Below, in pieces: positions 45,358-60,982 of a DNA stretch of 60,982 nt. Each line of letters opens with the position of its first letter. The first letter of the stretch is position 1. Both the position numbers and the translations under genes were made by a program. This DNA comes from a virus (lineage: Duplodnaviria > Caudoviricetes): positions 1 through 60,982 of IMG/VR virus record IMGVR_UViG_3300027749_003742. One strand, written 5' to 3'. Below the pieces are notes generated by a model. It was not told the origin of the DNA and searched no databases. It saw only the letters and a list, made by a program, of their open reading frames with translations.

Positions 45358-46041
45358 TTGAATCAAAAGTATATTGTTGGGATAGCCTCTTTACCCGATA
45401 GAGAAGATTGTTTGGAAGAAACTATACGCAGCCTATATGACCAAGTTGATAAGATTATTGTTGGTTTGAACAAATATACTGAAATACCTTTCTTTTTAAA
45501 TATGAAAAAAATTGATTCGTATTTATTAGATAACTCATTAGGTGACGCGGCCAAATTTTATAAAGTCGATAATTACCAAAACGATTATTATTTCGCATGT
45601 GATGATGACATCATTTATCCCAAAAATTATTGTGAAATTTTAATTAAAAAATGCGAACAATATAAATCAATTGTTGGATTACATGGAGTTAGATTGATAA
45701 AACCTATAACAAGTTATTATAAAAATAGAAAAGTTTATCATTGTCTACATTCGTTAGAAAATGATGTTGAGGTTGATTTAATAGGTAGTGGAGCTTGTTT
45801 AATTGATACCTCAATCCTAAAAATAAAATTATCAGATTTTCGAACACCTAATATGGGTGATATATGGTTAGGGGATTTATGTAAAAAACAAAACATTAAA
45901 TCATTCACTATATCAAGAGAAAAAAATTGGTTAAAATATAGTGACAAAATGTCCAATAAATGGACAATTTACGATGATTTTAAAAATAAAAAAGATGAAG
46001 AACAAACTAAAATAGTATCAATATGGAATACGGTAGAGTAA
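45358..46041 (+). CDS. Glycosyltransferase (GT-A)
   Basis: IASLPDR, GDAAKF, CDDDIIYP, NMGDIW. Confidence 0.8.
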   Translation: MNQKYIVGIASLPDREDCLEETIRSLYDQVDKIIVGLNKYTEIPFFLNMKKIDSYLLDNSLGDAAKFYKVDNYQNDYYFACDDDIIYPKNYCEILIKKCEQYKSIVGLHGVRLIKPITSYYKNRKVYHCLHSLENDVEVDLIGSGACLIDTSILKIKLSDFRTPNMGDIWLGDLCKKQNIKSFTISREKNWLKYSDKMSNKWTIYDDFKNKKDEEQTKIVSIWNTVE

Positions 46042-48377
46042 ATATAAAATACGATAATAATGAAATTTCATTACTGAGTCTTTTTGAGTCTGACCACATT
46101 TATAAACATTTAAAAAAGACTGGTAATTTTTATGAGTTAAAACTTTTAGAAAAAGTTAAATCGTTAAATTTAACGGGTACGTATATCGATGTTGGTGCTA
46201 ATATAGGTAATCATACTATTTTTTTCTCAAAATTTTGTAAATCAACACAAGTAATCTCGATTGAATTAAATTGTGAAATTTATAAAGTTCTACAACAAAA
46301 CGTAATTAACTCACCAAATGTATCTACAATTAATATTGGGGTTGGTGAAAAATTTAAACATGTTAAAATATCTAATATTGATGAAACTAATGTTGGGATG
46401 ACAAAAATAATTGGCGAAAATGGGGATATTGTAGTAGATACTTTAGATTCTATTTTATCAGATGTAAACAATATAAGTATTATTAAAATTGATGTTGAGG
46501 GGTATGAAAAAAATGTTTTAATAGGCGCAAAAAATATTATTTCTAAACATTCTCCAGTAATAATTGCGGAACTTAGAGATGAAAAAGAATTTGACGAGTT
46601 TGAAAAAATATCTAATGATATTGGATATTTTACAGATAAAATAAACTACGCCTCAACCCCAACTTATTTTTGGTATAAGAAAAATGAAATATATGATTTT
46701 GTTTATATTATACCAACTTATGAAAGATTTGATAAAGTTAAACCATTAATAGACGACATATTAACTAAGAATCTAAATACTTTAATTATTGTGTTAAGTG
46801 ATGGTTCTTCAGATAAACGTTATAAAACATTAATTAACTTTAATAAACGAGTTGTTTATATTGAAAATAGGACTAACAATGCCAAAGAAAAATATTGGTT
46901 AACCGTTAACACCTTATTAAATGAAATGTCTAAGTATAAATTTAAATATGGGGTAATGTTAGGTGATGATTTCACACTCATCGATGGTTATCAAGAGAAA
47001 TTAGAGAAATATATTAGTGATGGTAACATAGTTAGATTATTTACACAACAATCTATTGGGGACACTAATTGGGGGTTTAAAGATTGGGTTGACGGCGCGT
47101 TCTGTGCACCATACTCATTCTTTCAAAAAATCAATTTTGAATTATTTCCGATAAAAAAATTAATCGGACGGGTTTCTTCAGGGGTCGGCCAACAGATGTC
47201 CCAACGATTGACTAACTTAAATTATGTTGTAAAAAATTACGGTTCGTTAATTCGTCATATTGGTAATGACGATTCAAAAATGCACCCAACAATTAGACTA
47301 AATCAACCATTAGTTGCGGATTTTAAAATCCAACAGAAATTATTAACCATTATTATACCCACTTTTAATAACGTTGAATTTATTAAAGAATGTTTATCAT
47401 CAGTGATTAAGTCAGTAAAGTCGTTGAATTGTGAAATCTTAGTAGGTATTGATTCTTGTGAAAAAACGTTAGAATTTGTATCAAAAAACATGTTTGATGG
47501 TAGAGTACGATTTTTATTTTTTCAACATAATGTTGGTCCATATATAATTAAAAATAGTTTAGTGAAAAATTCTAATTCTGATACAATTTTATTTTTTGAT
47601 TCTGACGACATAATGTGTGAAAACATGGTCGAAGAAATTATTAAATTACAATCATTTAATGATTTTGTAAGACCTAAATATATTAATTTTAATGGGTTAA
47701 TACCTACTAACCCTCCTGTGAGTAACGAAAAACTTTTTGGTGAAGGAGTTTTTAGTATAAAAAAAGAATTGTTCCTATCGATGAACGGGTTTGAGCCATG
47801 GAGAACAACCGCCGACACTGATTTTATGGGTAGATTATATAAGAATAGTCGTAAATCAACTAATACCCCTACAGTCCTATTCTATAGAAGAATTCATCAA
47901 AATAGTTTAACACAATCCAAACAAACTGGACATGGGTCAAAAGTTAGACAAAACTATAATAATCTAATAAGGAATAAGACTTCCTTTGGACCGTTACCTA
48001 ATTTAAGTACCTCACCATTTATTGAAATTTCTGTTGGTCATACTAAACCCGTTGAAATATTCGATGAGGTTAAACATAAAAAAATGGTCGTAAATGATAT
48101 GGTTAAAGGTATTTTAAATAAAACAAATATATCAAAAACAATTGATTACGACTTAATAAATAAAAACACTCAAAAACAAGGGGTTTATGTTCCGATTAAT
48201 AATGTGAAACCTATTAGAGAAAATAAACCTGTTGATAGAATGAAGATTACTGAACTTAAAAAAGACTCACTCGCATATCAATCCCGAGAATTTGGTGGTA
48301 TTAAAAAAACCAACAAAAGTTCTTCACCAAATATTTTTGGTGGTAATAATAAAAGAAAAGGTGGTCCATTACTTTGA
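46023..48377 (+). CDS. FkbM-family methyltransferase fused to two GT2 domains
   Basis: IDVGANIGNH and IKIDVEGYE; IIPTYER..GDDF; IIIPTFN..FFDSDD. Confidence 0.85.
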   Translation: MEYGRVNIKYDNNEISLLSLFESDHIYKHLKKTGNFYELKLLEKVKSLNLTGTYIDVGANIGNHTIFFSKFCKSTQVISIELNCEIYKVLQQNVINSPNVSTINIGVGEKFKHVKISNIDETNVGMTKIIGENGDIVVDTLDSILSDVNNISIIKIDVEGYEKNVLIGAKNIISKHSPVIIAELRDEKEFDEFEKISNDIGYFTDKINYASTPTYFWYKKNEIYDFVYIIPTYERFDKVKPLIDDILTKNLNTLIIVLSDGSSDKRYKTLINFNKRVVYIENRTNNAKEKYWLTVNTLLNEMSKYKFKYGVMLGDDFTLIDGYQEKLEKYISDGNIVRLFTQQSIGDTNWGFKDWVDGAFCAPYSFFQKINFELFPIKKLIGRVSSGVGQQMSQRLTNLNYVVKNYGSLIRHIGNDDSKMHPTIRLNQPLVADFKIQQKLLTIIIPTFNNVEFIKECLSSVIKSVKSLNCEILVGIDSCEKTLEFVSKNMFDGRVRFLFFQHNVGPYIIKNSLVKNSNSDTILFFDSDDIMCENMVEEIIKLQSFNDFVRPKYINFNGLIPTNPPVSNEKLFGEGVFSIKKELFLSMNGFEPWRTTADTDFMGRLYKNSRKSTNTPTVLFYRRIHQNSLTQSKQTGHGSKVRQNYNNLIRNKTSFGPLPNLSTSPFIEISVGHTKPVEIFDEVKHKKMVVNDMVKGILNKTNISKTIDYDLINKNTQKQGVYVPINNVKPIRENKPVDRMKITELKKDSLAYQSREFGGIKKTNKSSSPNIFGGNNKRKGGPLL

Positions 48378-48419
48378 TTTTAAAAAAAAATATTCTTACA
48401 TTTACAAAAAATAAAAGAT

Positions 48420-48596
48420 ATGTTTGTAATAATTAAACACGTAAAAAATACAATAGGCGTTAAAGTTCCTGTAATTTTAATTAATAGTCACTCTGAGATT
48501 TGGGAGTTTGATACTCTTGAAGAGGCGGAATCCATGAGACTAATTTTTGAACAGAACTCAGATTCGGGTCATAAATACGAGGTTAAGAAAATTTAA
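48420..48596 (+). CDS. Small hypothetical protein (not in ORF track)
   Basis: 58-aa ORF MFVIIKHV..EFDTLEEA..YEVKKI. Confidence 0.6.
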   Translation: MFVIIKHVKNTIGVKVPVILINSHSEIWEFDTLEEAESMRLIFEQNSDSGHKYEVKKI

Positions 48597-48602
48597 TCAT
48601 AT

Positions 48603-48679
48603 GCACCCGTAGCTCAGCTGAAAAGAGCAACGGTTTTCTAAACCGTAGGTCCCAGGTTTGAATCCTGGCGGGTGTACCA
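48603..48679 (+). tRNA. tRNA-Arg(UCU)
   Basis: Cloverleaf; ACGGT-TTTCTAA-ACCGT; encoded CCA. Confidence 0.92.
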
Positions 48680-49198
48680 TCATAACCCACCGTGTATTTC
48701 TCGGTGACAATTAGAACATACTAACATACATTTGTCTAACTCATTTTTAATTACTTTGTCAAATTTATATTGTCTGACATGTGCAATTGTAAAATCCTTT
48801 TCATTGGGGATTAAATGATGAAAGTCTAAGGCTCCTATGTACTTATTGTATCCACATATTTGACAACAACCTCCTTTATAATCAACCATTTCCTGTTTTA
48901 ATTTTCTATTTCTTTCAGTAACTTGAATGGTTGTACATTTTTTACAATAAACTGACCCTCCTATTTTTCCTCTTCTATTATAAAATTCATCAATACTACA
49001 ATTATTATTACATTTTGGACATAGTCTGTGGTCACCATATTCTTTAATTCCTTGAGATGAAAAATTTTTTGTTTTAAAAGGTATTTTGTATTTTTTTACC
49101 CAATATCTAATAGTACTTAACGATTTACCCGTTTCTTTACTAATTTGATTTAATGATTTACCATCATTTATTAATTTTTCTAAAAATTCTTTTTTCAT
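48680..49198 (-). mobile_element. HTH plus HNH homing endonuclease abutting tRNA-Arg
   Basis: N-terminal HTH; CQICGY..ALDFHH..LVCSNCHREIH. Confidence 0.85.
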
Positions 49199-49277
49199 AG
49201 TTAAATGGATTATATTATATAAATATCCAATTAAACCATAAAATTGACATCAATAAAAAAGTGTTTATATTTAGTGT

Positions 49278-49529
49278 ATGGGAAGTCAAGATAATATGTT
49301 AGAACAAGAACATAATGAGTTCGTTAATAGCGAACTATTTTGTCAAATGATTAAGGAGAAAATCGAAAATTCTCATTATCATAAATATGATGGGATTGCC
49401 CCCGAAGGGTTTATCTTAATACCTGAACAAACTTTAGAACGATTAAAAGATTTCGACTATTGGAAGGAGTGGATACACGACTCAACAACTTTTAATAAAG
49501 ATATGAAAGAGGATACAAAAAATATGTGA
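49278..49529 (+). CDS. Hypothetical protein
   Basis: ORF. Confidence 0.55.
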   Translation: MGSQDNMLEQEHNEFVNSELFCQMIKEKIENSHYHKYDGIAPEGFILIPEQTLERLKDFDYWKEWIHDSTTFNKDMKEDTKNM

Positions 49530-49569
49530 TTTTTCTTGGATAGTCAAATCTTTTTTGTATCTTTGTTCT

Positions 49570-50160
49570 ATGAAAAATATATTAGGATTTCTTTTTATTT
49601 CTTTTGGTGTTATGGTAGCGTTGAAAGAAGAATACCATTGTAAAAATTACAGTGAGGTCTTTTCAAAAATGACGAATAGTGGGAGTTCTTCTGAATCAAC
49701 TCCTTCGGTTGAGGACCAAGTTGTTTATATCTCAGGTTTGGGGGATTTTGACCAATCCGATTTAGAAACGGCCTCAAAGGCTATTACTGAAGTATACGGT
49801 CTTAAATGTGAAATAATTAATCCAACAAGTACCTCAGATATTTTATATAATGAGAAGGGTAAGTTAGACGCAAAAATATGTCATCAACAATTAAATCCGA
49901 AAAATAAAACGGTTTATGTGACAAATGAATATGTAATGTCTGATGGGATAATTGTTTGTGGGGCAACAACATTTTATGGTAATTTTATTATTGTTAGTGA
50001 TAATTTTAATAATCACGTAAGAAATACTACACTTCATGAAATGGCACACACTTTTGGTCTTGGTCATTGTGATAATCAATGTATATTAGGTCATATTAAA
50101 CTTGGCGAACCTAACGGTAAATTTTGTAACGACTGTAAAATAAAACTTGGATTAAAATGA
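49570..50160 (+). CDS. Archaemetzincin-like (M54) Zn protease, membrane anchored
   Basis: HEMAHTFGLGHC..C..FCNDC. Confidence 0.8.
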   Translation: MKNILGFLFISFGVMVALKEEYHCKNYSEVFSKMTNSGSSSESTPSVEDQVVYISGLGDFDQSDLETASKAITEVYGLKCEIINPTSTSDILYNEKGKLDAKICHQQLNPKNKTVYVTNEYVMSDGIIVCGATTFYGNFIIVSDNFNNHVRNTTLHEMAHTFGLGHCDNQCILGHIKLGEPNGKFCNDCKIKLGLK

Positions 50161-50432
50161 AAACTTTTGAAGATTTAGAATTTAGACCTCATCGTATGGA
50201 TGGTGTACAATCAATTATGATGTTTGATAATGGATATGGTGTTTCTGTTATTAAAACGCCACACTCTTACGGTGGAAAAAGGGGTCGATACGAATTGGCG
50301 GTATTAGACTCAAGTGAGGCAATTACATACAACACACCTGTTACTGAAGATGTATTAGGTTACCTTTCTGAAAAAGAAGTAACAAGATACATGATAGAAG
50401 TTCAAAAATTATTAACCTTTAACTTAAAATAA
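50157..50432 (+). CDS. Conserved-type phage hypothetical protein
   Basis: FDNGYGVSVI..YELAVL. Confidence 0.65.
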   Translation: MKTFEDLEFRPHRMDGVQSIMMFDNGYGVSVIKTPHSYGGKRGRYELAVLDSSEAITYNTPVTEDVLGYLSEKEVTRYMIEVQKLLTFNLK

Positions 50433-50484
50433 TATGCCAGATTTCACAACCGAGATTGACATTGACCCATATGAGTATGTGTCG

Positions 50485-50762
50485 CAGATATGCCCAGTTT
50501 GGGATTAAATAGTAGAAACTTTAAATAATAAATAAAATGACAAAAAAAGCAGAAAATTCAAATGAAACACAGAACCCCAAATTGGGTATATCTGTTGTTA
50601 TAAATCGTTTTTTAGATAAAGTGTTATTGTGGTTGATTTATCGTAGATGGAGAATGTTAGGTAAGAAAATAGATGGTAAGACATTTTTATCGTCTGATTA
50701 TGCTAAAAGACGTAAATCTTATGAGAGTTTGATGTGGGAAGTTAGGAAAAATGATTTATAAC
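50485..50762 (+). mobile_element. Integron-like gene cassette (attC-like hairpin plus ORF 50537-50761)
   Basis: 19-bp imperfect IR 50485-50503/50576-50594; GTTATAAATCGTTTT..AAAATGATTTATAAC ends. Confidence 0.55.
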
Positions 50763-50796
50763 GAACAAGTATAAATATAATAATTTTATAAAAATG

Positions 50797-50827
50797 TTTG
50801 ACAATTGAAGAACTTTTACTACTTTTG
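50797..50827 (+). promoter_or_regulatory. Bacteroidota consensus promoter of tRNA operon 1
   Basis: TTTG-N19-TACTTTTG. Confidence 0.8.
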
Positions 50828-50865
50828 TAATAGTTATTAGAAAACAATTGAAAAAAATAGAATCA

Positions 50866-50970
50866 ATGAGAACAAATATTAAACATATGGTCATTATCAG
50901 TAAATCGCAATTTATGAATTGCTGGTATCCGCGTGTTTCAAGTATTGGTTCGGAATTGAGTGTAAGATAA
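50866..50970 (+). CDS. Putative attenuator leader peptide 1 (34 aa)
   Basis: MRTNIKHMVIISKSQFMNCWYPRVSSIGSELSVR; codons match downstream tRNAs; contains antiterminator strand. Confidence 0.75.
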   Translation: MRTNIKHMVIISKSQFMNCWYPRVSSIGSELSVR

Positions 50971-50992
50971 AAGTTAAGTATAACATATATCT

Positions 50993-51025
50993 AAACCCCG
51001 AGCCACATAAGGTTCGGGGTTTTTT
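50993..51025 (+). terminator. Attenuator terminator 1
   Basis: AAACCCCGAGCC-ACATAA-GGTTCGGGGTTT-TTT; 5' arm can alternatively pair with 50946-50953. Confidence 0.85.
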
Positions 51026-51032
51026 GTTTTAA

Positions 51033-51052
51033 GTTCATTGACATATTGGTTT
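51033..51052 (+). promoter_or_regulatory. boxA-like antitermination element
   Basis: GTTCATTGACATATTGGTTT; near-identical copy at 58049-58068. Confidence 0.6.
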
Positions 51053-51062
51053 AAAAGTTTAT

Positions 51063-51146
51063 TGTCCTGTAGTGTAATTGGCAACACACCTGATTTTGGC
51101 TCAGGAATCCGAAAGGTGTATTCAGGTTCGAGTCCTGACAGGACAA
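51063..51146 (+). tRNA. tRNA-Gln(UUG) with 16-nt variable region
   Basis: CCTGA-TTTTGGC-TCAGG; T-arm TCAGG-TTCGAGT-CCTGA. Confidence 0.85.
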
Positions 51147-51151
51147 CACAT

Positions 51152-51221
51152 TGCGTGGCTCATTGGAGAAGAGTTATTTCTCATAAGGATGACCAGGTGG
51201 GTTCGACTCCCATACACGCAA
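51152..51221 (+). tRNA. Degenerate tRNA with CAU anticodon (Met/Ile2)
   Basis: CTCATAA loop, intact T-arm; about 3 nt missing between acceptor and D stems. Confidence 0.55.
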
Positions 51222-51271
51222 CGACAAAAAAAAGTTTGGTAATATAAAATAAATTACTAACTTTGTCAAAC

Positions 51272-51343
51272 AGTTCCTTAGCTCAACGGTAGAGCACTTG
51301 TCTTACATACAAGAAGTTGCGGGTTCGATTCCCTCAGGAACTA
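51272..51343 (+). tRNA. tRNA-Val(UAC)
   Basis: CTTGT-CTTACAT-ACAAG. Confidence 0.9.
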
Positions 51344-51349
51344 CAATAA

Positions 51350-51422
51350 GGACCTCAAGCTAACTTAGTAGAAGCGTTGGACTGAAAATCCAAAGGACTT
51401 GGAGCGTAACCAAGGGGGTCCA
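51350..51422 (+). tRNA. tRNA-Phe(GAA) with atypical T and D loops
   Basis: TTGGA-CTGAAAA-TCCAA; T-loop AGCGTAA. Confidence 0.8.
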
Positions 51423-51502
51423 CGGAGGCCTGAAATAACAGGACACCCCCACTCCCATATGGCAGTCAGTCCGTTAACCTGATGAAGTGGGGTTTTTTAA
51501 AT

Positions 51503-51577
51503 GGAGTGTATAGTGTCAGTGGTTGAGCACGTTAGTTTGTGGTACTAATAGGGTGAGTTCGAATCTCACTATACTCC
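51503..51577 (+). tRNA. tRNA-His(GUG)
   Basis: G-1:C73; TTAGT-TTGTGGT-ACTAA. Confidence 0.9.
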
Positions 51578-51729
51578 CAAAAGTCGGGACGCTACGGTCG
51601 TAAATTCTGCAGAATGAGAAGACGAAAAGCCTAAGCACGCAGATGAGCTCGCGTTGACGACTATAAAATTGGATGTGGGGTTTGTTAGTAAAACAAGTTA
51701 CTTATCAATTAATGTGTATATTTATTAAT

Positions 51730-52314
51730 ATGAGAAAAGAAAAATACACCAAAGAATTGTTAGAAAAACTTGTTTCAGAATCCGAAACTTTTTCTGACTT
51801 GGTTAGGAAACTAACCTTAAAAACAAAGGTTCATGGTAACATGGTCGCCTATATAAAAAAAAAGTTGATTGAATTAGGTATTAATTTTGACCATTTTAAA
51901 GGAAGGAGTTGGTCAAAAGGTAAATCAAATTCTACGGGTACTGCGTTAACTAAAGAAGAATTTAGTGAGTTTTATTTATCTAAGAACGCAAAAAAATATA
52001 CAGGTAGTAATAATATTAAAAAATACTTGTTTAAGTTTGGTTTAAAAGAGAATAAATGTGAGGTATGTGGTATTGGCGAATATTGGAATGGGTTACCAAT
52101 CTCAAATCAATTAGACCATATTGATGGGGATAATCAGAATAACGAAATAAATAATTTACGAATTTTATGCCCTAATTGTCATAGTCAAACTAAAACTTTC
52201 GCAGGTAGAAATGTAAAAACGGAAGGCGCCCGAATGGACGAGGACACCGCCTTGAAAGCGGCTGAGTGTAAAAGCTTTGGGGGTTCGATTCCCTCGTCTT
52301 CCGCAAAAAAATAA
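51730..52314 (+). mobile_element. HNH homing endonuclease (ORF runs through tRNA-Ser)
   Basis: CEVCG..LDHIDGDNQNN..NLRILCPNCHSQT. Confidence 0.88.
52221..52303 (+). tRNA. tRNA-Ser(UGA)
   Basis: CCGC-CTTGAAA-GCGG, long variable arm, G73. Confidence 0.88.
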
Positions 52315-52318
52315 AATT

Positions 52319-52741
52319 ATGAAAACAAAAGAAGAGGCAAAACTTGATTTTGAAATGACTGTCAAACGTCTTAGAGAAGAACGAGAGATTAAACGAAAGG
52401 AGTATTGGAATGATTTGAAACCCTTCAATGAACCAAACGACATTCCTGAAATCCCAAGGGTGGATGAAAAAGAGTATAAAGAGTTCTACATCCCAAGATT
52501 AATTAAGGCGGGAGCAATCCCAAAGAAAGACTTAATTCACGGTCAGGTTTATATTGGGGACCACAGGAACACAGATATTGCAAGATGGAATCAGGAAACA
52601 AACAAATTTGACCACATGAGATATAAGTTTGGTTGGATGGAAGATGACTGTAATCATTTTGAAGATGACGATGGATTTGCATTATTTGTTCCGATTAAAT
52701 TAGGAACTGAAGAAGATTGGACTAACAGATTAACAAAATAA
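52319..52741 (+). CDS. Hypothetical protein
   Basis: ORF. Confidence 0.65.
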   Translation: MKTKEEAKLDFEMTVKRLREEREIKRKEYWNDLKPFNEPNDIPEIPRVDEKEYKEFYIPRLIKAGAIPKKDLIHGQVYIGDHRNTDIARWNQETNKFDHMRYKFGWMEDDCNHFEDDDGFALFVPIKLGTEEDWTNRLTK

Positions 52742-52745
52742 AAAC

Positions 52746-52952
52746 ATGACAAAAAAAATAACTCAGTCCCTTAAAGACCAACAAATTTCAGAACCTGAAA
52801 TAATCGATTTAATTAGTTCTTACCGAAAAATGGTAAAGGCAGGAATCCTAAAAGAAAAAGGGTTTGTTAAACTTTTAATTAAACTGGGAATTGACCGACC
52901 AAGTGATAACCAATTCATCCTTGATGAGAATAAGGTATATACGCTTAAGTAA
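52746..52952 (+). CDS. Hypothetical protein
   Basis: ORF. Confidence 0.55.
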   Translation: MTKKITQSLKDQQISEPEIIDLISSYRKMVKAGILKEKGFVKLLIKLGIDRPSDNQFILDENKVYTLK

Positions 52953-52957
52953 AAAAC

Positions 52958-53030
52958 AGTCTCTTGGTGTAACGGATTAGCACCTATCGTTACGGCCGAT
53001 AAAGTTTGGGTTCGAATCCCAAGGAGACTA
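52958..53030 (+). tRNA. tRNA-Arg(ACG)
   Basis: TATCG-TTACGGC-CGATA. Confidence 0.9.
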
Positions 53031-53070
53031 CAACATCCGATGTGTGTTCCCGAGCTAGGTCGGGATAAAT

Positions 53071-53158
53071 GGAGAATAGAGGAGGGAAATGGTGTCCCCG
53101 ATTGTTTGCTAAACAATAACCCATTAAGTTGGGCGTGGTTCGAGTCCACTGTTCTCCG
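53071..53158 (+). tRNA. tRNA-Ser(GCU), 8/4-type cloverleaf
   Basis: ATTGT-TTGCTAA-ACAAT; 8-bp acceptor stem, 4-bp T-stem. Confidence 0.8.
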
Positions 53159-53165
53159 CAACAAT

Positions 53166-53238
53166 GGTTCTGTAGTTCAATTGGAAGAACAAAGTCCTTC
53201 TAAGGATGGTCAAGTGGGTTCGAATCCCTCCAGAATCA
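53166..53238 (+). tRNA. Second tRNA-Arg(UCU) with irregular anticodon stem
   Basis: CTTCTAA loop, A20; anticodon stem mispaired. Confidence 0.6.
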
Positions 53239-53248
53239 CTAAAATAAA

Positions 53249-53320
53249 CGGGGTGTAGTCTTGAGGAGAGACGCTTGGTTTGGGACCAAGAGGCGGCGGG
53301 TTCGACTCCCGCCACCCCGA
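53249..53320 (+). tRNA. tRNA-Pro(UGG)
   Basis: CTTGG-TTTGGGA-CCAAG. Confidence 0.92.
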
Positions 53321-53389
53321 CAAAAAATTTAGTAAAACAGAACGATATATACCAAAAAATGGTTACTTTTGTTCAATAAAACTAAACAT

Positions 53390-53462
53390 TGTGATGTGTC
53401 CGAGCGGCTTAGGAACTATCCTGATACGATAGTCTACGTGGGTTCGAGTCCCACCGTCACAA
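53390..53462 (+). tRNA. tRNA-Ile(GAU)
   Basis: CTATC-CTGATAC-GATAG. Confidence 0.9.
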
Positions 53463-53511
53463 CCTTGGGTCGTTTTTGTACTTTAATGATATTTATTATT
53501 AAAGTACAATT

Positions 53512-54156
53512 ATGGCAAGAAAAGAAAAAAAATATCATTACATTTACAAGACCACAAATATTAAAAATGGAAAATATTATATCGGAATGCACAGTACTGA
53601 TAATCTTGAAGATGGTTATATGGGGTCTGGTAAAAGATTGAGACGTTCTTTGAAGAAATACGGTAAACAAAATTTTAAGTCTGAAATCTTGGAATTTTTA
53701 CCAAATAGGGTATCTTTAATCGAAAAAGAAAAAGAATTGATAAATGAGAAACTATTAAAAGATTCATTATCAATGAATATTAAAAAGGGTGGTGAAGGTG
53801 GTTTTGTTAACAACGAACATAAAATTAAATTTATTAATGAGGCGGTAAAGATGTTTAACATTAATAAGGAGAAAATGGTTGAGAGGAAAAAATGGTTGTG
53901 GGATAATGATAAAGAATGGCGTGATAATTTTAGTAAAAAACTAAGTAATAGTAAAATAGGTAATATCAGTTGGACTGGATTACATCATACTGAAGAAACA
54001 AAAAGAAAAATATCGAAAAAAAATTCAATAAATCAAAAAGGTGAAAACAATTCCCAATTTGGGACTCGTTGGGTTACAAATGGAAAAGAGAATACAAAAA
54101 TTAAAAAAGAAGAAACAATTCCTAATGGATGGAGATTGGGAAGAAAATTGATATAG
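53512..54156 (+). mobile_element. GIY-YIG (Seg-like) homing endonuclease with NUMOD3
   Basis: YIYKTTN..GKYYIGMH..YMGSG; HTEETKRKIS. Confidence 0.9.
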
Positions 54157-54161
54157 AATGT

Positions 54162-54230
54162 AAGTCTATGGTGAAACGGTTTATCGTCTATGTATACAAA
54201 ACCAAGGTTTCAGCTTCAAATCCTGATTAC
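54162..54230 (+). pseudogene. Decayed tRNA remnant
   Basis: D-arm-like GGTGAAACGGTTTATC and T-arm-like TCAG-CTTCAAAT-CCTGA; no valid anticodon arm. Confidence 0.4.
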
Positions 54231-54301
54231 TCCTTCATAGCTTACTGGTAAAGCTTACGACTTTTAATCGTAAGACCCAAGTTCGATTCTTGGTGGGGGA
54301 A
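54231..54301 (+). tRNA. tRNA-Lys(UUU)
   Basis: TACGA-CTTTTAA-TCGTA. Confidence 0.9.
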
Positions 54302-54305
54302 CAAT

Positions 54306-54377
54306 GGTCACATGGCCGAGTGGCTTAGGTGATGGTCTGCAAAACCATCCACGTAGGTTCGAATCCTACTGTGACCT
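54306..54377 (+). tRNA. tRNA-Cys(GCA)
   Basis: ATGGT-CTGCAAA-ACCAT; U73. Confidence 0.93.
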
Positions 54378-54388
54378 CAAACAAATAC

Positions 54389-54461
54389 GCGTCTTTGGTG
54401 TAACGGCTTAGCATAAGTGACTCCAAATCTCTTGGTCAGGGTTCGAATCCCTGGGGACGCG
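54389..54461 (+). tRNA. tRNA-Trp(CCA)
   Basis: CTCCAAA loop; G73. Confidence 0.9.
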
Positions 54462-54469
54462 CAATTATT

Positions 54470-54541
54470 GGCTTGGTAGCTCAGAGGAAGAGCATTCGTT
54501 TGTTAAGCGAGAGGTCGGGATATTTTAATTCCTCCAATCCG
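54470..54541 (+). tRNA. tRNA-Asn(GUU) with degenerate T-loop
   Basis: TTCGT-TTGTTAA-GCGAG; T-loop ATTTTAA. Confidence 0.65.
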
Positions 54542-54618
54542 TAATTATTTTAAGAAAAATGTTGTGGGTATTAAAATTAGTTGTATATTTGTAAAACAAA
54601 CAAACTAAAACATATACC

Positions 54619-55065
54619 ATGACAAACACAATCATCAACGTAACAACAGGAACATTAGCAGGAGATACTTTCTACGGAAACTTTAACACTACCATCAAAG
54701 GTAAAAGAGAATCTGTTATGGTGTCTAACCATATCAAGGATTTGAATAAAGAATACGAATTCCGTATCGCAAACAAATGTCAGGCAGGATTTATTAATAT
54801 CCACGACACTAAAGGAACTGCGGAAGGAGTTATCCGTGGGTACAGTAAGAACTCATTGGCTAACATTCAAGTTAAGAATGAGTTCGGTCATTGGGTGAAC
54901 GTATACACCACCAAAGGTGGTAAATGGTACTCAATTGACAAAGGGTTCATGGATGTATTGACTGTTGGGACAATGAGAGAGTCTTTCCCTGTTATGTGTG
55001 ACATGGAAATTTGGACTAAATTTGGAGCAAAAACTTGGGCGGACAAGGCGTTCGTCCAAAATTAA
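54619..55065 (+). CDS. Hypothetical protein
   Basis: ORF behind TATATTTG. Confidence 0.7.
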   Translation: MTNTIINVTTGTLAGDTFYGNFNTTIKGKRESVMVSNHIKDLNKEYEFRIANKCQAGFINIHDTKGTAEGVIRGYSKNSLANIQVKNEFGHWVNVYTTKGGKWYSIDKGFMDVLTVGTMRESFPVMCDMEIWTKFGAKTWADKAFVQN

Positions 55066-55071
55066 AAAAAT

Positions 55072-55159
55072 AGTCAGGTGGCGGAATTGGTTAGACGTAA
55101 CCAATAGGAAAGCAATCAGCAACAACTGGTTTACACAGGTTCGAATCCTGTCCTGACTA
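55072..55159 (+). ncRNA. tRNA-scaffold RNA 1 (no canonical anticodon loop)
   Basis: AGTCAGG/CCTGACT acceptor, Leu-type D arm, perfect T arm; 23-nt loop in place of the anticodon loop. Confidence 0.7.
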
Positions 55160-55319
55160 CAAGTAGCCCGAAGTACAAGGGACCGAAGATGGAGATTACA
55201 GACATAGGTTGAAATAAAAAATACCTTCGGGTACATCTATGTAATGGCGTGGACGCTCCCCGAATCGTGGGTCGGCATAGTTTGTGTGTTCTAGGGGTAT
55301 TTGAAAAACACACATTTTT

Positions 55320-55449
55320 AGTCAGGTGGCGGAATGGTAGACGCTACATAGATAGTCAACTACAACAATAATAAAAATGGGTTGCTCCATATAATAAGAA
55401 TTGCTCTGTCGCAGAGGTTGATATACAGGTTCGAGTCCTGTCCTGACTA
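55320..55449 (+). ncRNA. tRNA-scaffold RNA 2
   Basis: Same acceptor and T stems as 55072 with an unrelated insert of about 80 nt. Confidence 0.7.
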
Positions 55450-55590
55450 CAAAGGTTGATTGGGGAATGGTGATACCTATGACACGAGAGTGTGTGTCGG
55501 TCGGTATCATCGGAGTTTGCAGGTACACACCGAAGTAACGCCAATCGTAAAAGAGGATGTCCACTGAACCATCTTCCTCTTTCCTAACTT

Positions 55591-55670
55591 GGGAGTGTTG
55601 AGCAACGGTTGCTTAGCTGACTGTAAATCAGTGGTCTACGACATTGGGGGTTCGAATCCCTCCACTCCCA
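55591..55670 (+). tRNA. tRNA-Tyr(GUA)
   Basis: GCTGA-CTGTAAA-TCAGT; variable arm. Confidence 0.92.
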
Positions 55671-55948
55671 CTAACTTTTAAACTAATAGTCTTCGAAAAT
55701 AGTAATTTTATTAAAACAGATAACATTGATGGTCAATGGTTATCTCCCATTCCTTCTGAGAGAGAATGGCAAGAACAAAAATTGGTTGAGATATTTGGGC
55801 ATTACCCAAATGCAAGTCCAAGATGGCAATACTTAAATGCGTTAATTTTAAGTGCTTTGGAACATATTGAGCAGAATAAAGAATAAGAAGTGTTAGAGAC
55901 CACGCATTTTAAGATTTACAACTATTTATTTTAATATAGAATAATAGT

Positions 55949-57343
55949 ATGAATTTTAAACAAATATTAATTGCTGAGTCCGAGAAGAAACGTATCAGGG
56001 AAATGTATGGAATATTAACAGAACAATATTTCAAAGCTCCTAATGGTGGTACGGGTCAAGTAGTTAATAAATATCCTGCGGGTTATTATTCGTTAAGTGG
56101 TACGGATAAATCAGGTACCGCATATGACAACACAACCAATTTACAAAAAATTATCGATAACGCCAAAGAGTTTTTAACGGCTAATAAAGGTTATATCCCA
56201 AGAATTGTTATTAATGCGGGTGAATCTATTAACCCTAATTACGATACTGAAGGTGGTACGGGAGTTAAAAGTTCAGGATGGTTGTCTCAAAAAAGAAAAG
56301 ACAAAATTGAGGTATATATTAAACAACAATTAAAAGATTTAGTCGATAAAAAACTTATCTCAAAGTATCCCGAGGTTATTTTATATTTTGATGAGGCGAA
56401 AACATTAACAATACCATCAGGTGGGTGGGACGATTATCGAACATGGAAAAAATCTACCGACCAAGAAAAAAAGGTAAACCCTAAAAACGCCGAATATATT
56501 AAGTTAAAAACTGGCTACGATACCGACCAATTTACTAAAATAAATTTTAAAATTGTTCCTGATTTTGGGGATAATCAATGTTCATTTAATGTTAAAATTG
56601 GGGTACACTATGATGATTTAAGTATTGGTCATAGATGTAACACTGCAAGGTTTGAAATCTTGGCAAACGGTGTACAATTAACGACAGGTGGTGGAACAAC
56701 ATGTGGGTCAGGATTACGATATGCCGATATGAATAATGGTGGTGGTAGTTTAGATTGTAAATCAGGCGATATTGGTGGACAAAGAATGAATTATTTCCAA
56801 TTAAATAATAAGTCCGTGGTTGATAAAATTATAGCAGCGTCTCCCGATAAAAACACTATAAAAATAACTATGAGATGTACGTCAACAGGATTTAACGACC
56901 CTACTGGTAGATGTCATCAAGATGTTCCACATGTTACGGTTCACAATACTGATGGTAAAGTAACTGTTGACACATACCCTAGAATAAACGATGACGCCCT
57001 AATAACTATTGATAAATGTGGTAATAAAATTTCAGGTGGAGGGGGAGTACCAACAAAAAGTAAAGACGCAGCATCGGGAACGACAACGACACCTAATACC
57101 CCAACGACAACAACTACAGGTCAGAAAATAAATTTTGCCGCACCTGCAACAGGAACATTAACTTCAGACCAAGCAATCCTTAACAAACTAAGTAGTGGTG
57201 AGGTTAAGAAAAATACCGATAATACTTATTCAGTTTTGAAAACGTTTGCGTACAACGGTATTACTTATAAAGTCGGAGATACTATTGTAAAAATATTACC
57301 AAAGGGGAGTACTGTGACAACGACAACGACAACAATTAAATAA
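55949..57343 (+). CDS. Large putative virion protein, Cys/Thr-rich C-terminus
   Basis: TATTTAT upstream; LIAESEKKRIREMYGILTEQ leader. Confidence 0.65.
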   Translation: MNFKQILIAESEKKRIREMYGILTEQYFKAPNGGTGQVVNKYPAGYYSLSGTDKSGTAYDNTTNLQKIIDNAKEFLTANKGYIPRIVINAGESINPNYDTEGGTGVKSSGWLSQKRKDKIEVYIKQQLKDLVDKKLISKYPEVILYFDEAKTLTIPSGGWDDYRTWKKSTDQEKKVNPKNAEYIKLKTGYDTDQFTKINFKIVPDFGDNQCSFNVKIGVHYDDLSIGHRCNTARFEILANGVQLTTGGGTTCGSGLRYADMNNGGGSLDCKSGDIGGQRMNYFQLNNKSVVDKIIAASPDKNTIKITMRCTSTGFNDPTGRCHQDVPHVTVHNTDGKVTVDTYPRINDDALITIDKCGNKISGGGGVPTKSKDAASGTTTTPNTPTTTTTGQKINFAAPATGTLTSDQAILNKLSSGEVKKNTDNTYSVLKTFAYNGITYKVGDTIVKILPKGSTVTTTTTTIK

Positions 57344-57364
57344 AAAATGGGGTTACCCCCACTT

Positions 57365-57760
57365 CTATTCAACCTTACCGTAGTAATTGTATGAGGTTTT
57401 ATCATCCTCAACAATAACCGTAATTGTTGTATTATCAACACATGGTGATGTAAAATAAGTAACTACGTATGATTTTTTAGTACTTTCTTCTACTGAGTAA
57501 AAAGAATTAACACCAGGGTTAGCGTTTTTCTTACCCAATAAAGTATAAACCATATCACCATTTTTATGTTTAATAACCAAAGAATCTTGGTAGATTAAAA
57601 TTGTTGGTGATACTACCAATATAGAATCAGACCAAGTAGAAGTACTGTCAGTTATTGAATGACCAACCTCTAACGATTTGATATTTACTTTATAGATGTC
57701 TTGAGACAAGCAAAAGATTGTTGTTAAAGACAATAACGATGTGACGATTAATTTTTTCAT
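57365..57760 (-). CDS. Exported hypothetical protein
   Basis: Signal peptide ending CLS-Q; TATCTTTG upstream. Confidence 0.65.
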   Translation of the reverse strand: MKKLIVTSLLSLTTIFCLSQDIYKVNIKSLEVGHSITDSTSTWSDSILVVSPTILIYQDSLVIKHKNGDMVYTLLGKKNANPGVNSFYSVEESTKKSYVVTYFTSPCVDNTTITVIVEDDKTSYNYYGKVE

Positions 57761-57878
57761 ATCTTTTTATTTATACCACAAAGATAGAATAAAGTTCCGA
57801 TAAAAAAAAATTTTTATCAAAAAACTTGACACTTTCCAAAAGTGACATATATTTAATTAAAAACAGACAATACTGCAA

Positions 57879-57947
57879 ATGAAAAATTTAAATACAATAC
57901 TATTAGGCGGGACTGAGGCGGATACGACTCGGACGGAGATGGTATGA
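57879..57947 (+). CDS. Putative attenuator leader peptide 2 (22 aa)
   Basis: MKNLNTILLGGTEADTTRTEMV; contains GGAGATGG antiterminator strand. Confidence 0.75.
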   Translation: MKNLNTILLGGTEADTTRTEMV

Positions 57948-57972
57948 TATTTAGTATAATAAAACTTAATTG

Positions 57973-58002
57973 AACCCATCTCCAAAAAAGATGGGTTTTT
58001 TT
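57973..58002 (+). terminator. Attenuator terminator 2
   Basis: AACCCATCT-CCAAAAA-AGATGGGTT-TTTTT. Confidence 0.85.
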
Positions 58003-58081
58003 ATGTCTATTATTTTGTAATAACAATTATTTGTAGTAGATTTGTAATGTTCTTTGACATATTGGTTTGAAAAAAAAATAC

Positions 58082-58154
58082 GGCTCCATGGTTGAATGGC
58101 TACAATACCACCCTGTCACGGTGCGTGGTACGGGTTCGAATCCCGTTGGGGCCG
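58082..58154 (+). tRNA. tRNA-Asp(GUC)
   Basis: CACC-CTGTCAC-GGTG; G73. Confidence 0.9.
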
Positions 58155-58178
58155 CTTATTAACAAAATGGTTGTATTT

Positions 58179-58322
58179 ATGAGGATGAAAAAAATTAGTT
58201 TATTCCTGATTGTGTTGTTCACATTAATATCAGGATGTCAGTCAGACCCTAAATTCCGTAATTCGGAATTCACTAGGAAACCTGCACAGTATAATTCAAA
58301 TTACTCCTCGAAATACAGATAA
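58179..58322 (+). CDS. Small lipoprotein
   Basis: MRMKKISLFLIVLFTLISGC lipobox. Confidence 0.55.
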   Translation: MRMKKISLFLIVLFTLISGCQSDPKFRNSEFTRKPAQYNSNYSSKYR

Positions 58323-58329
58323 GGCATAT

Positions 58330-58406
58330 CGCAGGTTATGGAAGTGGTCTATCCGTCAGGTCTCATAAGCCAGAAATCGGGGGTTCGAATCCCTCACCTG
58401 CTACCA
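58330..58406 (+). tRNA. tRNA-Met(CAU), initiator-like
   Basis: C1:U72 mismatch; CTCATAA loop; CCA; lacks the three consecutive G-C anticodon pairs. Confidence 0.8.
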
Positions 58407-58409
58407 AAT

Positions 58410-58488
58410 GGGGGTGCATGTACCAAGGCTTTGGCGATGTCGATTTGCAATCAACGTGAGGTGGGTTCGATTCCCATCATCTCCACCA
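58410..58488 (+). tRNA. tRNA-Ala(UGC) with atypical D arm
   Basis: G3:U70; TTTGCAA loop; CCA. Confidence 0.85.
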
Positions 58489-58509
58489 AATAAACAAGTA
58501 AAATGAAGA

Positions 58510-58662
58510 ATGATGAAAGAAGTTTTATCGGGAACTTTCAAGTCGTCTAAAAAAGAATTTATTAAGGTAAATCAAGAAGATAATCTGATTGAAAGTTTGA
58601 AAAAAACGCTGAAAAGAACAAAGTACAGGTTCAGAGTGAGGAGCGGGTCTCACAAAAAGTAA
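58510..58662 (+). CDS. Small basic protein (not in ORF track)
   Basis: 50-aa ORF whose 3' end overlaps a structured element. Confidence 0.4.
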   Translation: MMKEVLSGTFKSSKKEFIKVNQEDNLIESLKKTLKRTKYRFRVRSGSHKK

Positions 58663-58744
58663 ATGGTGTCTTGGTCCGCTCTGAATGGTGACATTTAACG
58701 ACAAGGTCTCGGTGGACAGAACGCGTCTGATTCCACCCAAATTT

Positions 58745-58820
58745 GCGGGTATCGTATAATGGATTATTACTTTAGACTTCCAATCTAAAGATGTGAGTTC
58801 GATTCTCACTACCCGCTCCA
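58745..58820 (+). tRNA. tRNA-Gly(UCC)
   Basis: TTAGA-CTTCCAA-TCTAA; U73; CCA. Confidence 0.93.
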
Positions 58821-59062
58821 AATAAAAATAATTTCTCCAAAAAGGTTTGGTGGATTCAGAAAAGTTTAGTACTTTTGTAATGTGAGAATGGGGGACACGG
58901 TCGGTGAGAAGTTGGTGACCTGTCCCCCGACAAAAGAGTTAAAAGTTCATTGAAAAGAATATCTGTGGTGGGTAAAAAACGGTAAACTCGTAAAGTGCAT
59001 TTACTTGTTGATATGAAATGGTGAAACGAGGGTCCATATCAACTACACACCATAAAAATATT

Positions 59063-59238
59063 GAGAGAGTGGCGGAAAATAAAGACGCTTAAGCCGTCGC
59101 ACAATATCGGGGATTTTGGTTTAACAACCAAATATACGTGATGTAACCCGAGGCTGAGGTCATTCGAGTTAGGTTTTTACCTAATTCCAACCTGTAAAAA
59201 GGTGGTAGACAATGTGGGTGAAACCCCCACCTCTTTCG
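59063..59238 (+). ncRNA. tRNA-scaffold RNA 3 with multibranched insert of about 125 nt
   Basis: GAGAGAG/CTCTTTC acceptor; TGGCGGAA..AGACGC D arm; GTGGG-TGAAACC-CCCAC T arm. Confidence 0.6.
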
Positions 59239-59400
59239 CCTTATTGATAATGGTTTTCCCCATTCAACGGATGTCGACAATCCAGAATGGAATCGGAATT
59301 CATCACCCCCTGAAAAGGACAGTGCCGAGGCCTCGTAAAACTACGATTAAGCACTTAAGATTGGAGCGAGACGGGTACTCCATCATTATCATAATATTAT

Positions 59401-59472
59401 GTTGCCATCGTCTAACGGTTAGGACCTATGGTTTTCATCCATAAAATCGGAGTTCGATTCTCCGTGGCAATA
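59401..59472 (+). tRNA. tRNA-Glu(UUC)
   Basis: TATGG-TTTTCAT-CCATA. Confidence 0.92.
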
Positions 59473-59747
59473 CAAACGAGTAAGAGATATTCGTAGGGTT
59501 TTTAAGTATCCCTCAAAACTTGACGGAGTTGGTACCATTACGTTACAGGGTACTCGTTGGGAATAAGGAAGGAAGGTTCTCCTCTCCCCCAAGTAAGAAC
59601 TGACTTTTAAGTGATAGGACACGTTGGGTTTTCAAATAGAGAAACTATAAATATCCACTCACCACAATCTCAGGTGGGGTCCCAACCAAGGGCAATGCGG
59701 GTTCATACCTGCGGAGCAAGGTGACGGTCAGGAAAGACTGACAAAGT

Positions 59748-59828
59748 AACCAAGTAATACGTAATGGCAAAACGGTTATGTCACCCTTTATGGTTGTATC
59801 GTTGTAGGTTCGAGTCCTATCTTGGTTG
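59748..59828 (+). ncRNA. tRNA-like RNA 4
   Basis: AACCAAG/CTTGGTT acceptor, canonical T arm, long irregular stem in place of D/anticodon arms. Confidence 0.55.
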
Positions 59829-60045
59829 CTCGTTTCGGTTAGTTTACCGAATAGTATGTCCAATACGATGTGAAACGGGTTTAACTCCGTATGGAAACGT
59901 ACATAAGCGTATAGGGAGAACGCTTGGGTAAGTCAACCCGACCTCGTGAGGACGAACTGACTATTCCTAACCTGTAGTGGGGACAACCATAATACCTGTA
60001 AGCTGGATAAATAAGGGTATTTTTAACTTTTAAATAAATTGTAAA

Positions 60046-60192
60046 ATGGAAGAATGGAATCGTAATGAATGGCAAGGAAAAAGAAAAGACCAAGTCATGT
60101 ATACAAGAACAGTTTCGATTATTGGCGTGATATCAATTATTGTGATTTTATTGATATTTGGAATTTGTCAACTTTGTGGTATAAAGTTATAA
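60046..60192 (+). CDS. Small membrane protein (not in ORF track)
   Basis: MEEWNRNEWQGKRKDQV followed by a TM helix. Confidence 0.6.
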   Translation: MEEWNRNEWQGKRKDQVMYTRTVSIIGVISIIVILLIFGICQLCGIKL

Positions 60193-60196
60193 TCAC

Positions 60197-60279
60197 GCTC
60201 GGGTGTTGAAATTGGTAAACAAGACGGTCTTAAACACCGTTGGGAAAATCCCTTGAGGGTTCAAGTCCCTCCCCGAGTA
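60197..60279 (+). tRNA. tRNA-Leu(UAA)
   Basis: ACGGT-CTTAAAC-ACCGT; variable arm. Confidence 0.92.
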
Positions 60280-60469
60280 CTAAAATAAAACGACAGAAGT
60301 CCGACTTGCACGGATGAAAGGAACTTTGACTTCATGGGAGTTGCTACCCAACCGAAGAGAAATAAATGACTCAAGGTACTCTGTTTAGGACCCTGCTCTA
60401 CGTGGCCACGTAACAGGTGATGGGGAACAAACCATCAGTAAAATCCGTAAAAACGTTTTATTTTTTTAT

Positions 60470-60541
60470 TGGGAGTTCAGTTAATGGTTAGGCTATGAAT
60501 CTTATACATTCATAAAATGAGTTCGATTCTCATACTCCCAA
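60470..60541 (+). tRNA. tRNA-Ile(UAU)
   Basis: TGAAT-CTTATAC-ATTCA; A73. Confidence 0.88.
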
Positions 60542-60676
60542 CTATAAGTTCTTTGGAAATGGTGTACTTAGAATATTTTTTTATCTGTGTCTACCTTTTT
60601 TTCCACTGCCGCTTCAAATTTACACAGCACTAACACGCATAGCATATACAACTTGTTATGCACAGTACGGAAAATT

Positions 60677-60904
60677 ATGACACCAAAAGAAAAAGCGTTA
60701 GAATTAATCGAAAAATTCAAAATTAATGATTATGATTGGATAGCACAAGGGAATCTCTATTGTATTAAGCAACATGCTTTAGTTACAGTTGACGAAATTT
60801 TGAATACGATATTCAATGAAGATTTTTCTGGTCATCTTCTTGATGAAATCGGAGCGTCAGATTATTGGAATGAAGTAAAAAGTGAAATCGAAGCACTAAA
60901 GTAG
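60677..60904 (+). CDS. Hypothetical protein inside integron-like cassette
   Basis: MTPKEKALEL..VDEIL..YWNEVKSEIE. Confidence 0.7.
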   Translation: MTPKEKALELIEKFKINDYDWIAQGNLYCIKQHALVTVDEILNTIFNEDFSGHLLDEIGASDYWNEVKSEIEALK

Positions 60905-60910
60905 TATTGT

Positions 60911-60964
60911 GCATAACGTCTGATGATAAACAATCGTTTTAATGTTGTTTATCATTTGTTAGGT
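60911..60964 (+). mobile_element. attC-like site
   Basis: GCATAAC..ATGATAAACAA/TTGTTTATCAT..GTTAGGT. Confidence 0.6.
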
Positions 60965-60982
60965 TTAGTTAAATTATTGTTT

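Follow-up and report, generated by a model that had tools for sequence, protein, structure and literature searches.

How are the long arrays of transfer RNA (tRNA) genes carried by many phages switched on? To our knowledge, the regulation of phage tRNA genes is largely unknown, and the literature we found treats such arrays as gene content or as supplements to codon usage. The question is raised by a 60,982-bp fragment of an uncultured phage (IMG/VR record IMGVR_UViG_3300027749_003742; the whole record was analyzed and is referred to here as the window), in which two blocks of tRNA genes each lie behind a promoter or promoter-like site, a short open reading frame (ORF), an intrinsic terminator, and a boxA-like site (Table 1). 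Judging from the sequence, we consider it likely that each block is gated from its own promoter by a leader peptide through ribosome-mediated transcription attenuation, and the phage tRNAs would probably be made when ribosomes are short of them.

An original prediction, read from the letters of the window, described the first module as a promoter, a 34-codon ORF, a terminator, a boxA-like site, and 16 tRNAs, and all of these elements were recovered at the positions it gave. The promoter, which it called a consensus one, is present but of the Bacteroidota TTG-19-TAnnTTTG type, and it is absent from the list returned by a sigma-70 scan. Its TA..TTTG box is kept in relatives, the two middle bases varying (CT, AG, AA, AC, AT), and an A-rich untranslated stretch lies between promoter and ORF. 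Terminator 1 was the top match of a terminator scan (12 pairs, 7 of them G–C, followed by a T tract) that yielded 17 terminator-like sites versus 8.8 ± 3.0 in shuffles. The distance from stop codon to terminator is 22 nucleotides (nt) for leader 1 and 24 nt for leader 2. The list of 16 tRNAs was also correct: ARAGORN at default settings found 13 in 51063–55671, with tRNA-Gln beginning at 51063, a relaxed run added the CAU tRNA (51151–51220) and Ser-UGA (52221–52304), and Rfam added Asn-GUU (54470–54541). A seventeenth, tRNA-like element at 55072–55159 had escaped that list.

The leaders are tied to their blocks by codon content. Leader ORF 1 contains a strictly cognate codon for each of the 16 tRNAs of block 1. 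When 34-codon windows were taken from the phage fragment's own ORFs of at least 150 codons, cover of 16/16 occurred in 0 of 300,000 under strict wobble and at a frequency of 6.4e-4 under relaxed wobble; for independent draws from phage codon usage, the corresponding probabilities are 4e-5 and 2.1e-4. The match had initially been described for codons 4–27 plus the AGA at codon 2; tRNA-Val(UAC) strictly reads only the GTA at codon 33, and reading of GTC or GTT requires relaxed wobble. The reported absence of amino acids served by the second block holds for codons 4–27 only, the whole ORF containing Thr (codon 3) as well as Gly, Glu, and Leu (codons 28–31). The restriction to codons 4–27 was post hoc; it has a mechanistic reason, because codons 28–34 form or follow the strand of a putative antiterminator. 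Of the 26 sensor codons (2–27), 23 have a strict cognate among the block-1 tRNAs, against a proteome share of 52% (binomial 1e-4).

Leader 2 is unrelated in sequence to leader 1, yet its module has a similar layout, and its codons match a different set of tRNAs. In its sensor part, 11 of 18 codons are strictly cognate to block 2 (32% expected from the phage proteome), and all 7 block-2 anticodons in the window are covered. Leader 2 further contains five Thr codons and CTA; the window holds neither a tRNA-Thr nor a tRNA-Leu(UAG), because it ends before these genes of block 2. In relatives, block 2 goes on with Leu-UAG, Phe, and Thr-UGU, so that the tRNA-Thr(UGU) and Leu-UAG predicted by the leader-2 codons are indeed carried there, and with both included the cover is 9/9 (P = 7e-4, protein windows). 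A Phe codon occurs in leader 2 of loci L012 and L014 and in the related leader of L003, whose block 2 has tRNA-Phe, and G003, a 195-kb contig, has neither. The two leaders of the window thus cover 25 of 25 anticodons of their own blocks versus 9 of 25 crosswise (leader 1 on block 2, 5/9; leader 2 on block 1, 4/16; Fisher 8e-7), and one of the nine crosswise matches, by leader 1 on block 2, is an artifact of a wobble rule that lets UAU read ATG.

The same correspondence is found in other viral contigs. A survey of loci that selected modules by structure, not by codons, returned 398 terminators, 75 of them with a tRNA within 200 nt, from which 60 modules were obtained. Of these modules, 36 are non-redundant (<70% peptide identity), and 29 of the 36, from contigs other than the window, have at least six downstream anticodons. 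A permutation test of leader codons against downstream anticodons, with random short ORFs among the nulls, had been proposed along with the original prediction and came out in its favor. The modules' own leaders cover 318 of 377 anticodons, compared with 216 ± 8.7 for spurious short ORFs, 220 ± 8.5 for random protein windows, and 261 ± 8.7 for swapped leaders, and 318 was reached in none of 1500 trials per null. Ten representatives with <35% identity, possibly including two that are not true leaders, cover 119 of 158 anticodons versus 87 ± 5.3 and 101 ± 3.5 (none of 3000 trials). Synonymous choice was examined in boxes that the array reads only partly: 183 of 263 leader codons are those read by array tRNAs, with 136 ± 7.5 expected (z = 6.2). 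With locus-specific codon usage, covering 13 of the 29 modules, the count is 72 of 98 versus 52.7 expected.

These numbers bear on the alternative that survives best, namely, that the leaders are attenuators reporting overall ribosome speed or availability, their codon diversity conferring sensitivity to any shortage. The leaders are indeed very diverse, with leader 1 holding 18 of the 20 amino-acid types, and the cover achieved by swapped leaders exceeds that of random proteins. Nevertheless, a general sensor is unlikely, as none of the 1500 swaps or the 3000 distant-family derangements covers an array as well as its own leader does, the two leaders of the window are complementary rather than interchangeable, and the synonymous choice tracks the anticodons of the array.

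Both leaders are conserved as coding sequences. Leader 1 is found in L012, L013/L014, L016 (= G003), L017, and P0002–4, and the IMG/VR relatives among these (L012, L013/L014, L016, and L017) all possess the promoter, ORF, terminator, boxA, and tRNA-Gln. Leader 2 is conserved in L012, L014, G003, and further relatives. The nonsynonymous rate (dN) is below the synonymous rate (dS) in 15 of 15 pairs for each leader, 30 of 30 in total. The leader-1 core K-H-M-V-I-I-S-K-S-Q-F-x-N-C-W-Y-P-R-V is invariant in relatives amid many third-position changes. A protein search with a 40-codon, TTG-extended version of the ORF retrieved three 58-aa proteins (P0002–P0004; 90–98% identity), near-identical sequences in which the frame begins at an ATG further upstream and spans 58 codons across the promoter. 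In the window, a stop shuts the upstream extension after four codons (50794–50808). The 58-codon extension and its ATG are absent from L012–L017, and the 34-codon frame is therefore regarded as the conserved unit. Neither leader peptide matches Pfam or PHROGs. Among INPHARED phages, the region was matched by tRNA hits only, with no match to the leader peptide, only distant matches to a neighboring 784-aa protein, and no cultured relative.

Each ORF end can also pair with the terminator that follows it. In the minimum-energy fold of the leader without the terminator 3′ arm, UGGUUCGG (50946–50953) pairs with CCGAGCCA (50998–51005) around an inner AGAUA/UAUCU helix, exactly the segments and helix read initially; with the 3′ arm present, terminator 1 forms. 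Leader 2 folds in a like manner, and GGAGAUGG (57935–57942) pairs with CCAUCUCC (CCATCTCC, 57976–57983). Antiterminator strand 1 is invariant in all close relatives, and its partner, CCGARCCA, is kept even with a shorter terminator stem: in L016 and L017, CCGAACCA is retained although its last three bases fall outside the stem. Covariation had been suggested as a check on the antiterminator helix, and in relatives of both families the ORF segment and the terminator arm do vary together. The ORF segment/arm pairs are TGGTTCGG/CCGAACCA, AGTTCAG/CTGAACT, AGTTCAGGGTT/AACCCTGGACT, and GTTCGGGC/GCCCGAAC in the leader-1 family and GGAGATGG/CCATCTCC, GGTGGGT/ACCCACC, GGAGGG/CCCTCC, and GAAGAGGG/CCCTCTTC in the leader-2 family, and one member, L137, has a mismatch. 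Pairings were tabulated per sequence, as in a MAFFT alignment the terminator arms of G003, L098, and L137 do not line up with the others and G003 has its antiterminator at a different position. In 27 of the 36 non-redundant modules, the pairing score exceeds that of 95% of the module's shuffles, and the mean score over all modules of 18.9 compares with 13.2 ± 0.44 when ORF ends and terminators are swapped; the matrix of own versus other pairings is not clean, since near-identical arms are scored as other. The paired segment mostly ends 0–18 nt before the stop codon, within reach of a terminating ribosome, and the distance from stop codon to terminator is 19–34 nt across modules.

Conserved short frames with dN<dS and a fixed residue order could instead be independent micro-protein genes, each with its own promoter and terminator, the tRNAs being driven from further downstream, where promoter-like sites do occur behind terminator 2 and before tRNA-Val. 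We regard this as quite improbable. The peptides belong to no Pfam or PHROGs family, and a micro-protein gene would explain neither the codon–anticodon match nor the copy of the terminator arm at the ORF end with its co-change, nor the narrow range of stop-to-terminator distances. Moreover, only 10 nt separate the end of the terminator 1 stem from boxA 1, and tRNA-Gln begins 25 nt after the TTGACA core, spacings too short for a promoter to fit between this terminator and the tRNA. That the hairpins are insulators ending upstream units and the ORFs untranslated chance frames is barely credible: terminators are common before tRNA genes (the 75 of 398 above), but a dedicated promoter lies directly upstream of each ORF, the substitutions show a third-position pattern with dN<dS in every pair, and spurious ORFs of the same length cover far fewer anticodons.

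The core of the prediction, namely that a multi-codon leader is translated, acts through a terminator/antiterminator switch, and matches the tRNAs behind it, has accordingly passed every computational test applied to its sequence: the leader is conserved as coding, the pairing is conserved, the second leader is complementary to the first, and the matching across modules stands out from three nulls. Translation of the leaders, the direction of the switch, and its physiological trigger are inferred. The trigger may be attack by anticodon nucleases, as the original prediction had it, or ordinary demand or feedback. In the mechanism proposed, the promoter would start a short leader RNA on which a ribosome translates the 34- or 22-codon frame. 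If decoding is fast, the ribosome would reach the stop codon and cover the 8-nt segment at the ORF end, the terminator would form, and transcription would halt before the tRNAs. If the ribosome pauses at a codon whose charged tRNA is scarce, the segment would remain free to pair with the emerging 5′ arm of the terminator, and polymerase would run on past the boxA-like site of host ribosomal RNA (rRNA) type and transcribe the tRNA block. As each leader draws on the codons that its own tRNAs decode, expression of a block would follow demand and cease when the new tRNAs had brought decoding back up to speed.

Several observations count against attenuation of this kind or limit its reach. The cover across the 29 modules is 84%, not 100%, and these modules are not wholly independent of one another, because the uncultured phages that carry them are related. 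Some codons are foreign to the block that they precede (Thr in leader 1; Lys, Asn, and Arg-CGG in leader 2). Most sensor codons are single rather than in runs as in the his or trp leaders, and sensitivity to one scarce tRNA is uncertain. No significant contiguous antiterminator is present in 9 of the 36 modules; in the "MKTNLRHMV...SFMS" leader family, which lacks a contiguous antiterminator of at least 7 nt, a bulged pairing with the AAAACCC stem base, picked out by eye, is a possible candidate. No protector helix is seen in the full-length fold, which has only a hairpin within the ORF (∼50904–50926) that does not involve the antiterminator strand, and without an upstream sequestering helix an untranslated leader should read through. 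A ribosome stalled at codons ∼23–27 of leader 1, which include the only CGT, would probably mask the antiterminator strand; since these codons lie within the ribosome footprint of that strand, stalling there should favor termination. Finally, promoter-like sites lie behind the terminators, and leader control is therefore probably partial: the site at 58014–58044 is conserved, as TAACTTTG, in L012, L014, and G003.

Internal promoters had been named as a caveat from the outset, and the conserved site between terminator 2 and boxA 2 makes that caveat stronger. On account of this conservation, block 2 probably has a constitutive promoter, to which the leader would add an inducible share. In block 1, the promoter-like site before tRNA-Val and a further TTG-19-TAnnTTTG site near 54584 are present in the window only; the former is not conserved, L012 having just 6 nt between its CAU and Val tRNAs. 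From this arrangement, at least the Gln and CAU tRNAs of block 1 are predicted to depend on read-through. A 222-nt metatranscriptome contig (run X15) aligns to 50852–51066 and bridges terminator 1 with two differences, both synonymous. As read-through RNA it is a weak hint at most, given that such contigs carry no ends, strand, or level and that the library may hold DNA; stretches without a contig are uninformative.

The boxA-like motif connects these modules to host-type rRNA operons. Its 15-nt core has exactly two copies in the window, one behind each leader terminator and ahead of the first tRNA of the block, and a 16-nt version is found in >116 viral contigs. Among the 80 loci listed, 39 have at least three tRNAs downstream, and 21 have a tRNA within 90 nt. 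A perfect-stem terminator lies no more than 160 nt upstream of the motif in 19 loci, and in all 19 a short ORF directly precedes it. The motif also recurs within many phage tRNA arrays, 23–29 nt before a tRNA. The exact 16-mer is frequent in bacterial genomes, where 58 of the 80 matches listed are, by their titles, Bacteroidota (Pedobacter, Mucilaginibacter, Chitinophaga, Ferruginibacter, and others). In three of three rRNA operons checked (Pedobacter and Flavihumibacter), it follows the spacer tRNAs and precedes the 23S gene, and the 16S–23S spacer is the expected place of a spacer boxA. Antitermination at rrn boxA works via NusB/S10. Like rrn boxA, the phage motif, a candidate Nus-factor site, heads a long untranslated unit, and it would make sense for the phage to copy a host-type rrn element behind each attenuator for such a unit, although the motif may have another role, e.g., in processing. 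The TTGACA within the boxA-like site was also considered as a sigma-70 promoter and rejected: a tRNA begins 20–25 nt after it in the window, as in 21 of the 80 motif loci listed, so that a start site would fall inside the tRNA, and no TAnnTTTG box follows. The motif is shared with loci L144, L146, and L150. On L070 (413 kb, viral), a 23-tRNA array is preceded at ∼1740–2052 by four units in tandem that each combine a promoter-like, AT-rich stretch with a boxA-like variant. Among the runs searched, the best matches to the phage DNA are freshwater and lake runs, one of which may be the source sample. Together with the host-type rrn motif and the promoter type, the freshwater runs holding this DNA point to a freshwater Bacteroidota host.

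Leader-peptide attenuators are classically known from amino-acid operons (trp, his, leu, pheA, and the multivalent thr and ilvGMEDA) and from pheST, with multivalent leaders sensing two or three amino acids. The phage modules resemble them in having a promoter, a short leader ORF, an intrinsic terminator, an alternative pairing through the terminator 5′ arm, and codons matched to the product. In contrast to amino-acid leaders, the phage modules would control tRNA genes rather than enzymes or synthetases, sample 7 to 16 tRNAs with mostly one codon each, show no protector (1:2) helix in the full-length fold, reside in a virus, and are followed by a boxA-like site. T-box riboswitches also respond to the state of one particular tRNA, with a terminator and an antiterminator as alternative outcomes; whereas they bind the tRNA directly, need no ORF, and control synthetase or amino-acid genes, the phage modules would use an ORF. 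No match to an Rfam leader family or T-box was obtained in 47000–60982 at E values up to 1.

The nearest precedent is the cryptic trn operon of Anabaena PCC 7120 (PMC8421152, PMC10272220), described in the title and abstract of these reports as an extra tRNA array that is normally silent, is turned on under translational stress, and is controlled by the repressor protein TrcR. A word search of both full texts returned neither "attenuat" nor "leader". On the basis of these summaries, the Anabaena operon is cellular and repressor-controlled, whereas the phage blocks are viral and, as proposed, leader-gated. In full-text literature searches, no description of tRNA genes under leader-peptide attenuation was found. 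What would be new is the use of classical ribosome-mediated attenuation for tRNA genes, the leader sampling every tRNA of the operon behind it.

If correct, this would be the first attenuation control of tRNA genes and would extend the logic of trp and his from one to three amino acids to sixteen tRNAs, the leaders being compact natural sensors of available tRNAs. It would also make testable when phage tRNAs are needed and whether they answer tRNA-targeting defenses. A broader scheme, which we put forward tentatively and to which we give somewhat less than an even chance, is a "tRNA-stat" in Bacteroidota phages. Every sub-array would be under demand feedback from a leader that gauges how fast just the codons of that sub-array are decoded, and when a defense nuclease or host shut-off removes particular tRNAs, the matching leader would stall and turn on the replacements. 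In that case, the leaders would report naturally which tRNAs are limiting for translation in the infected cell.

Table 1. Elements of the two leader modules and their tRNA blocks (positions in the window)
Feature	Position	Strand	Remarks
Promoter of leader 1	50797–50827	+	TTTG 50797–50800 within TTGACA 50798–50803, 19-nt spacer, TACTTTTG 50820–50827
Leader ORF 1	50866–50970	+	34 codons + stop from ATG; cognate codons for all 16 downstream tRNAs
Antiterminator 5′ strand 1, TGGTTCGG	50946–50953	+	codons 27–30; near copy of terminator 3′ arm
Intrinsic terminator 1	50993–51028	+	stem 50993–51022, then T tract
boxA-like site 1, GTTCATTGACATATTGGTTT	51033–51052	+	15-nt core exact match twice in window
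tRNA block 1	51063–55671	+	Gln, CAU, Val, Phe, His, Ser-UGA, Arg-ACG, Ser-GCU, Arg-UCU-like, Pro, Ile-GAU, Lys, Cys, Trp, Asn, Tyr
Internal promoter-like site	51235–51265	+	TTTG-19-TAACTTTG, 7 nt before tRNA-Val; possible partial bypass
Promoter-like site of leader 2	57826–57853	+	TTGACA-16-TATATT; kept in L012, L014, G003
Leader ORF 2	57879–57947	+	22 codons + stop; rich in Leu, Gly, Thr, Glu, Ala, Asp, ATA-Ile
Antiterminator 5′ strand 2, GGAGATGG	57935–57942	+	ends 3 nt before stop codon
Intrinsic terminator 2	57972–58004	+	stem 57972–57998
Promoter-like site between terminator 2 and boxA 2	58014–58044	+	TTTG-19-TAGATTTG; likely bypass promoter
boxA-like site 2	58050–58068	+	copy of boxA-like site 1 motif
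tRNA block 2 up to window end	58082–60542	+	Asp, CAU, Ala, Gly-UCC, Glu, Leu-UAA, Ile-UAU

In addition to its tRNAs, block 1 holds the tRNA-like element, three ORFs that match no family, and homing endonuclease genes of the HNH and GIY-YIG types. The tRNA-like element scores 42.3 bits against the Rfam tRNA model, but its anticodon loop region is 23 nt long instead of the expected 9, and no anticodon is assignable. The tRNA at 53166–53239 is drawn by ARAGORN with a 6-nt anticodon loop ("ct"), whereas the corresponding tRNA of L012 and L014 is an ordinary Arg-UCU. Upstream, at 48603–48679, the window also encodes a regular Arg-UCU. Two HNH genes and one GIY-YIG homing endonuclease gene lie in or beside the tRNA region, at 48680–49198 (−), 51673–52314 (+), and 53512–54156 (+), and the 3′ end of ORF 51673–52314 overlaps tRNA-Ser(UGA). 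In block 2, a near-threshold match to the Rfam freshwater-1 RNA (70.5 bits; gathering score 72) falls at 60382–60443, between tRNA-Leu(UAA) and tRNA-Ile(UAU). In the "MKT.LRHMV...SFMS" family (L059, L071, L077, L092, L098, and relatives), a tRNA-Thr(UGU) follows the terminator and precedes the boxA-like motif; these leaders contain two or three Thr codons. Homologues of the 74-aa ORF next to leader 1 (50537–50761) were found at 11 loci; neither blastn nor tblastn detected the leader at any of these, and five have the homologue downstream of the tRNA array. Further upstream, the 784-aa ORF (46023–48377) combines two domains, an FkbM-type methyltransferase and a family-2 glycosyltransferase.

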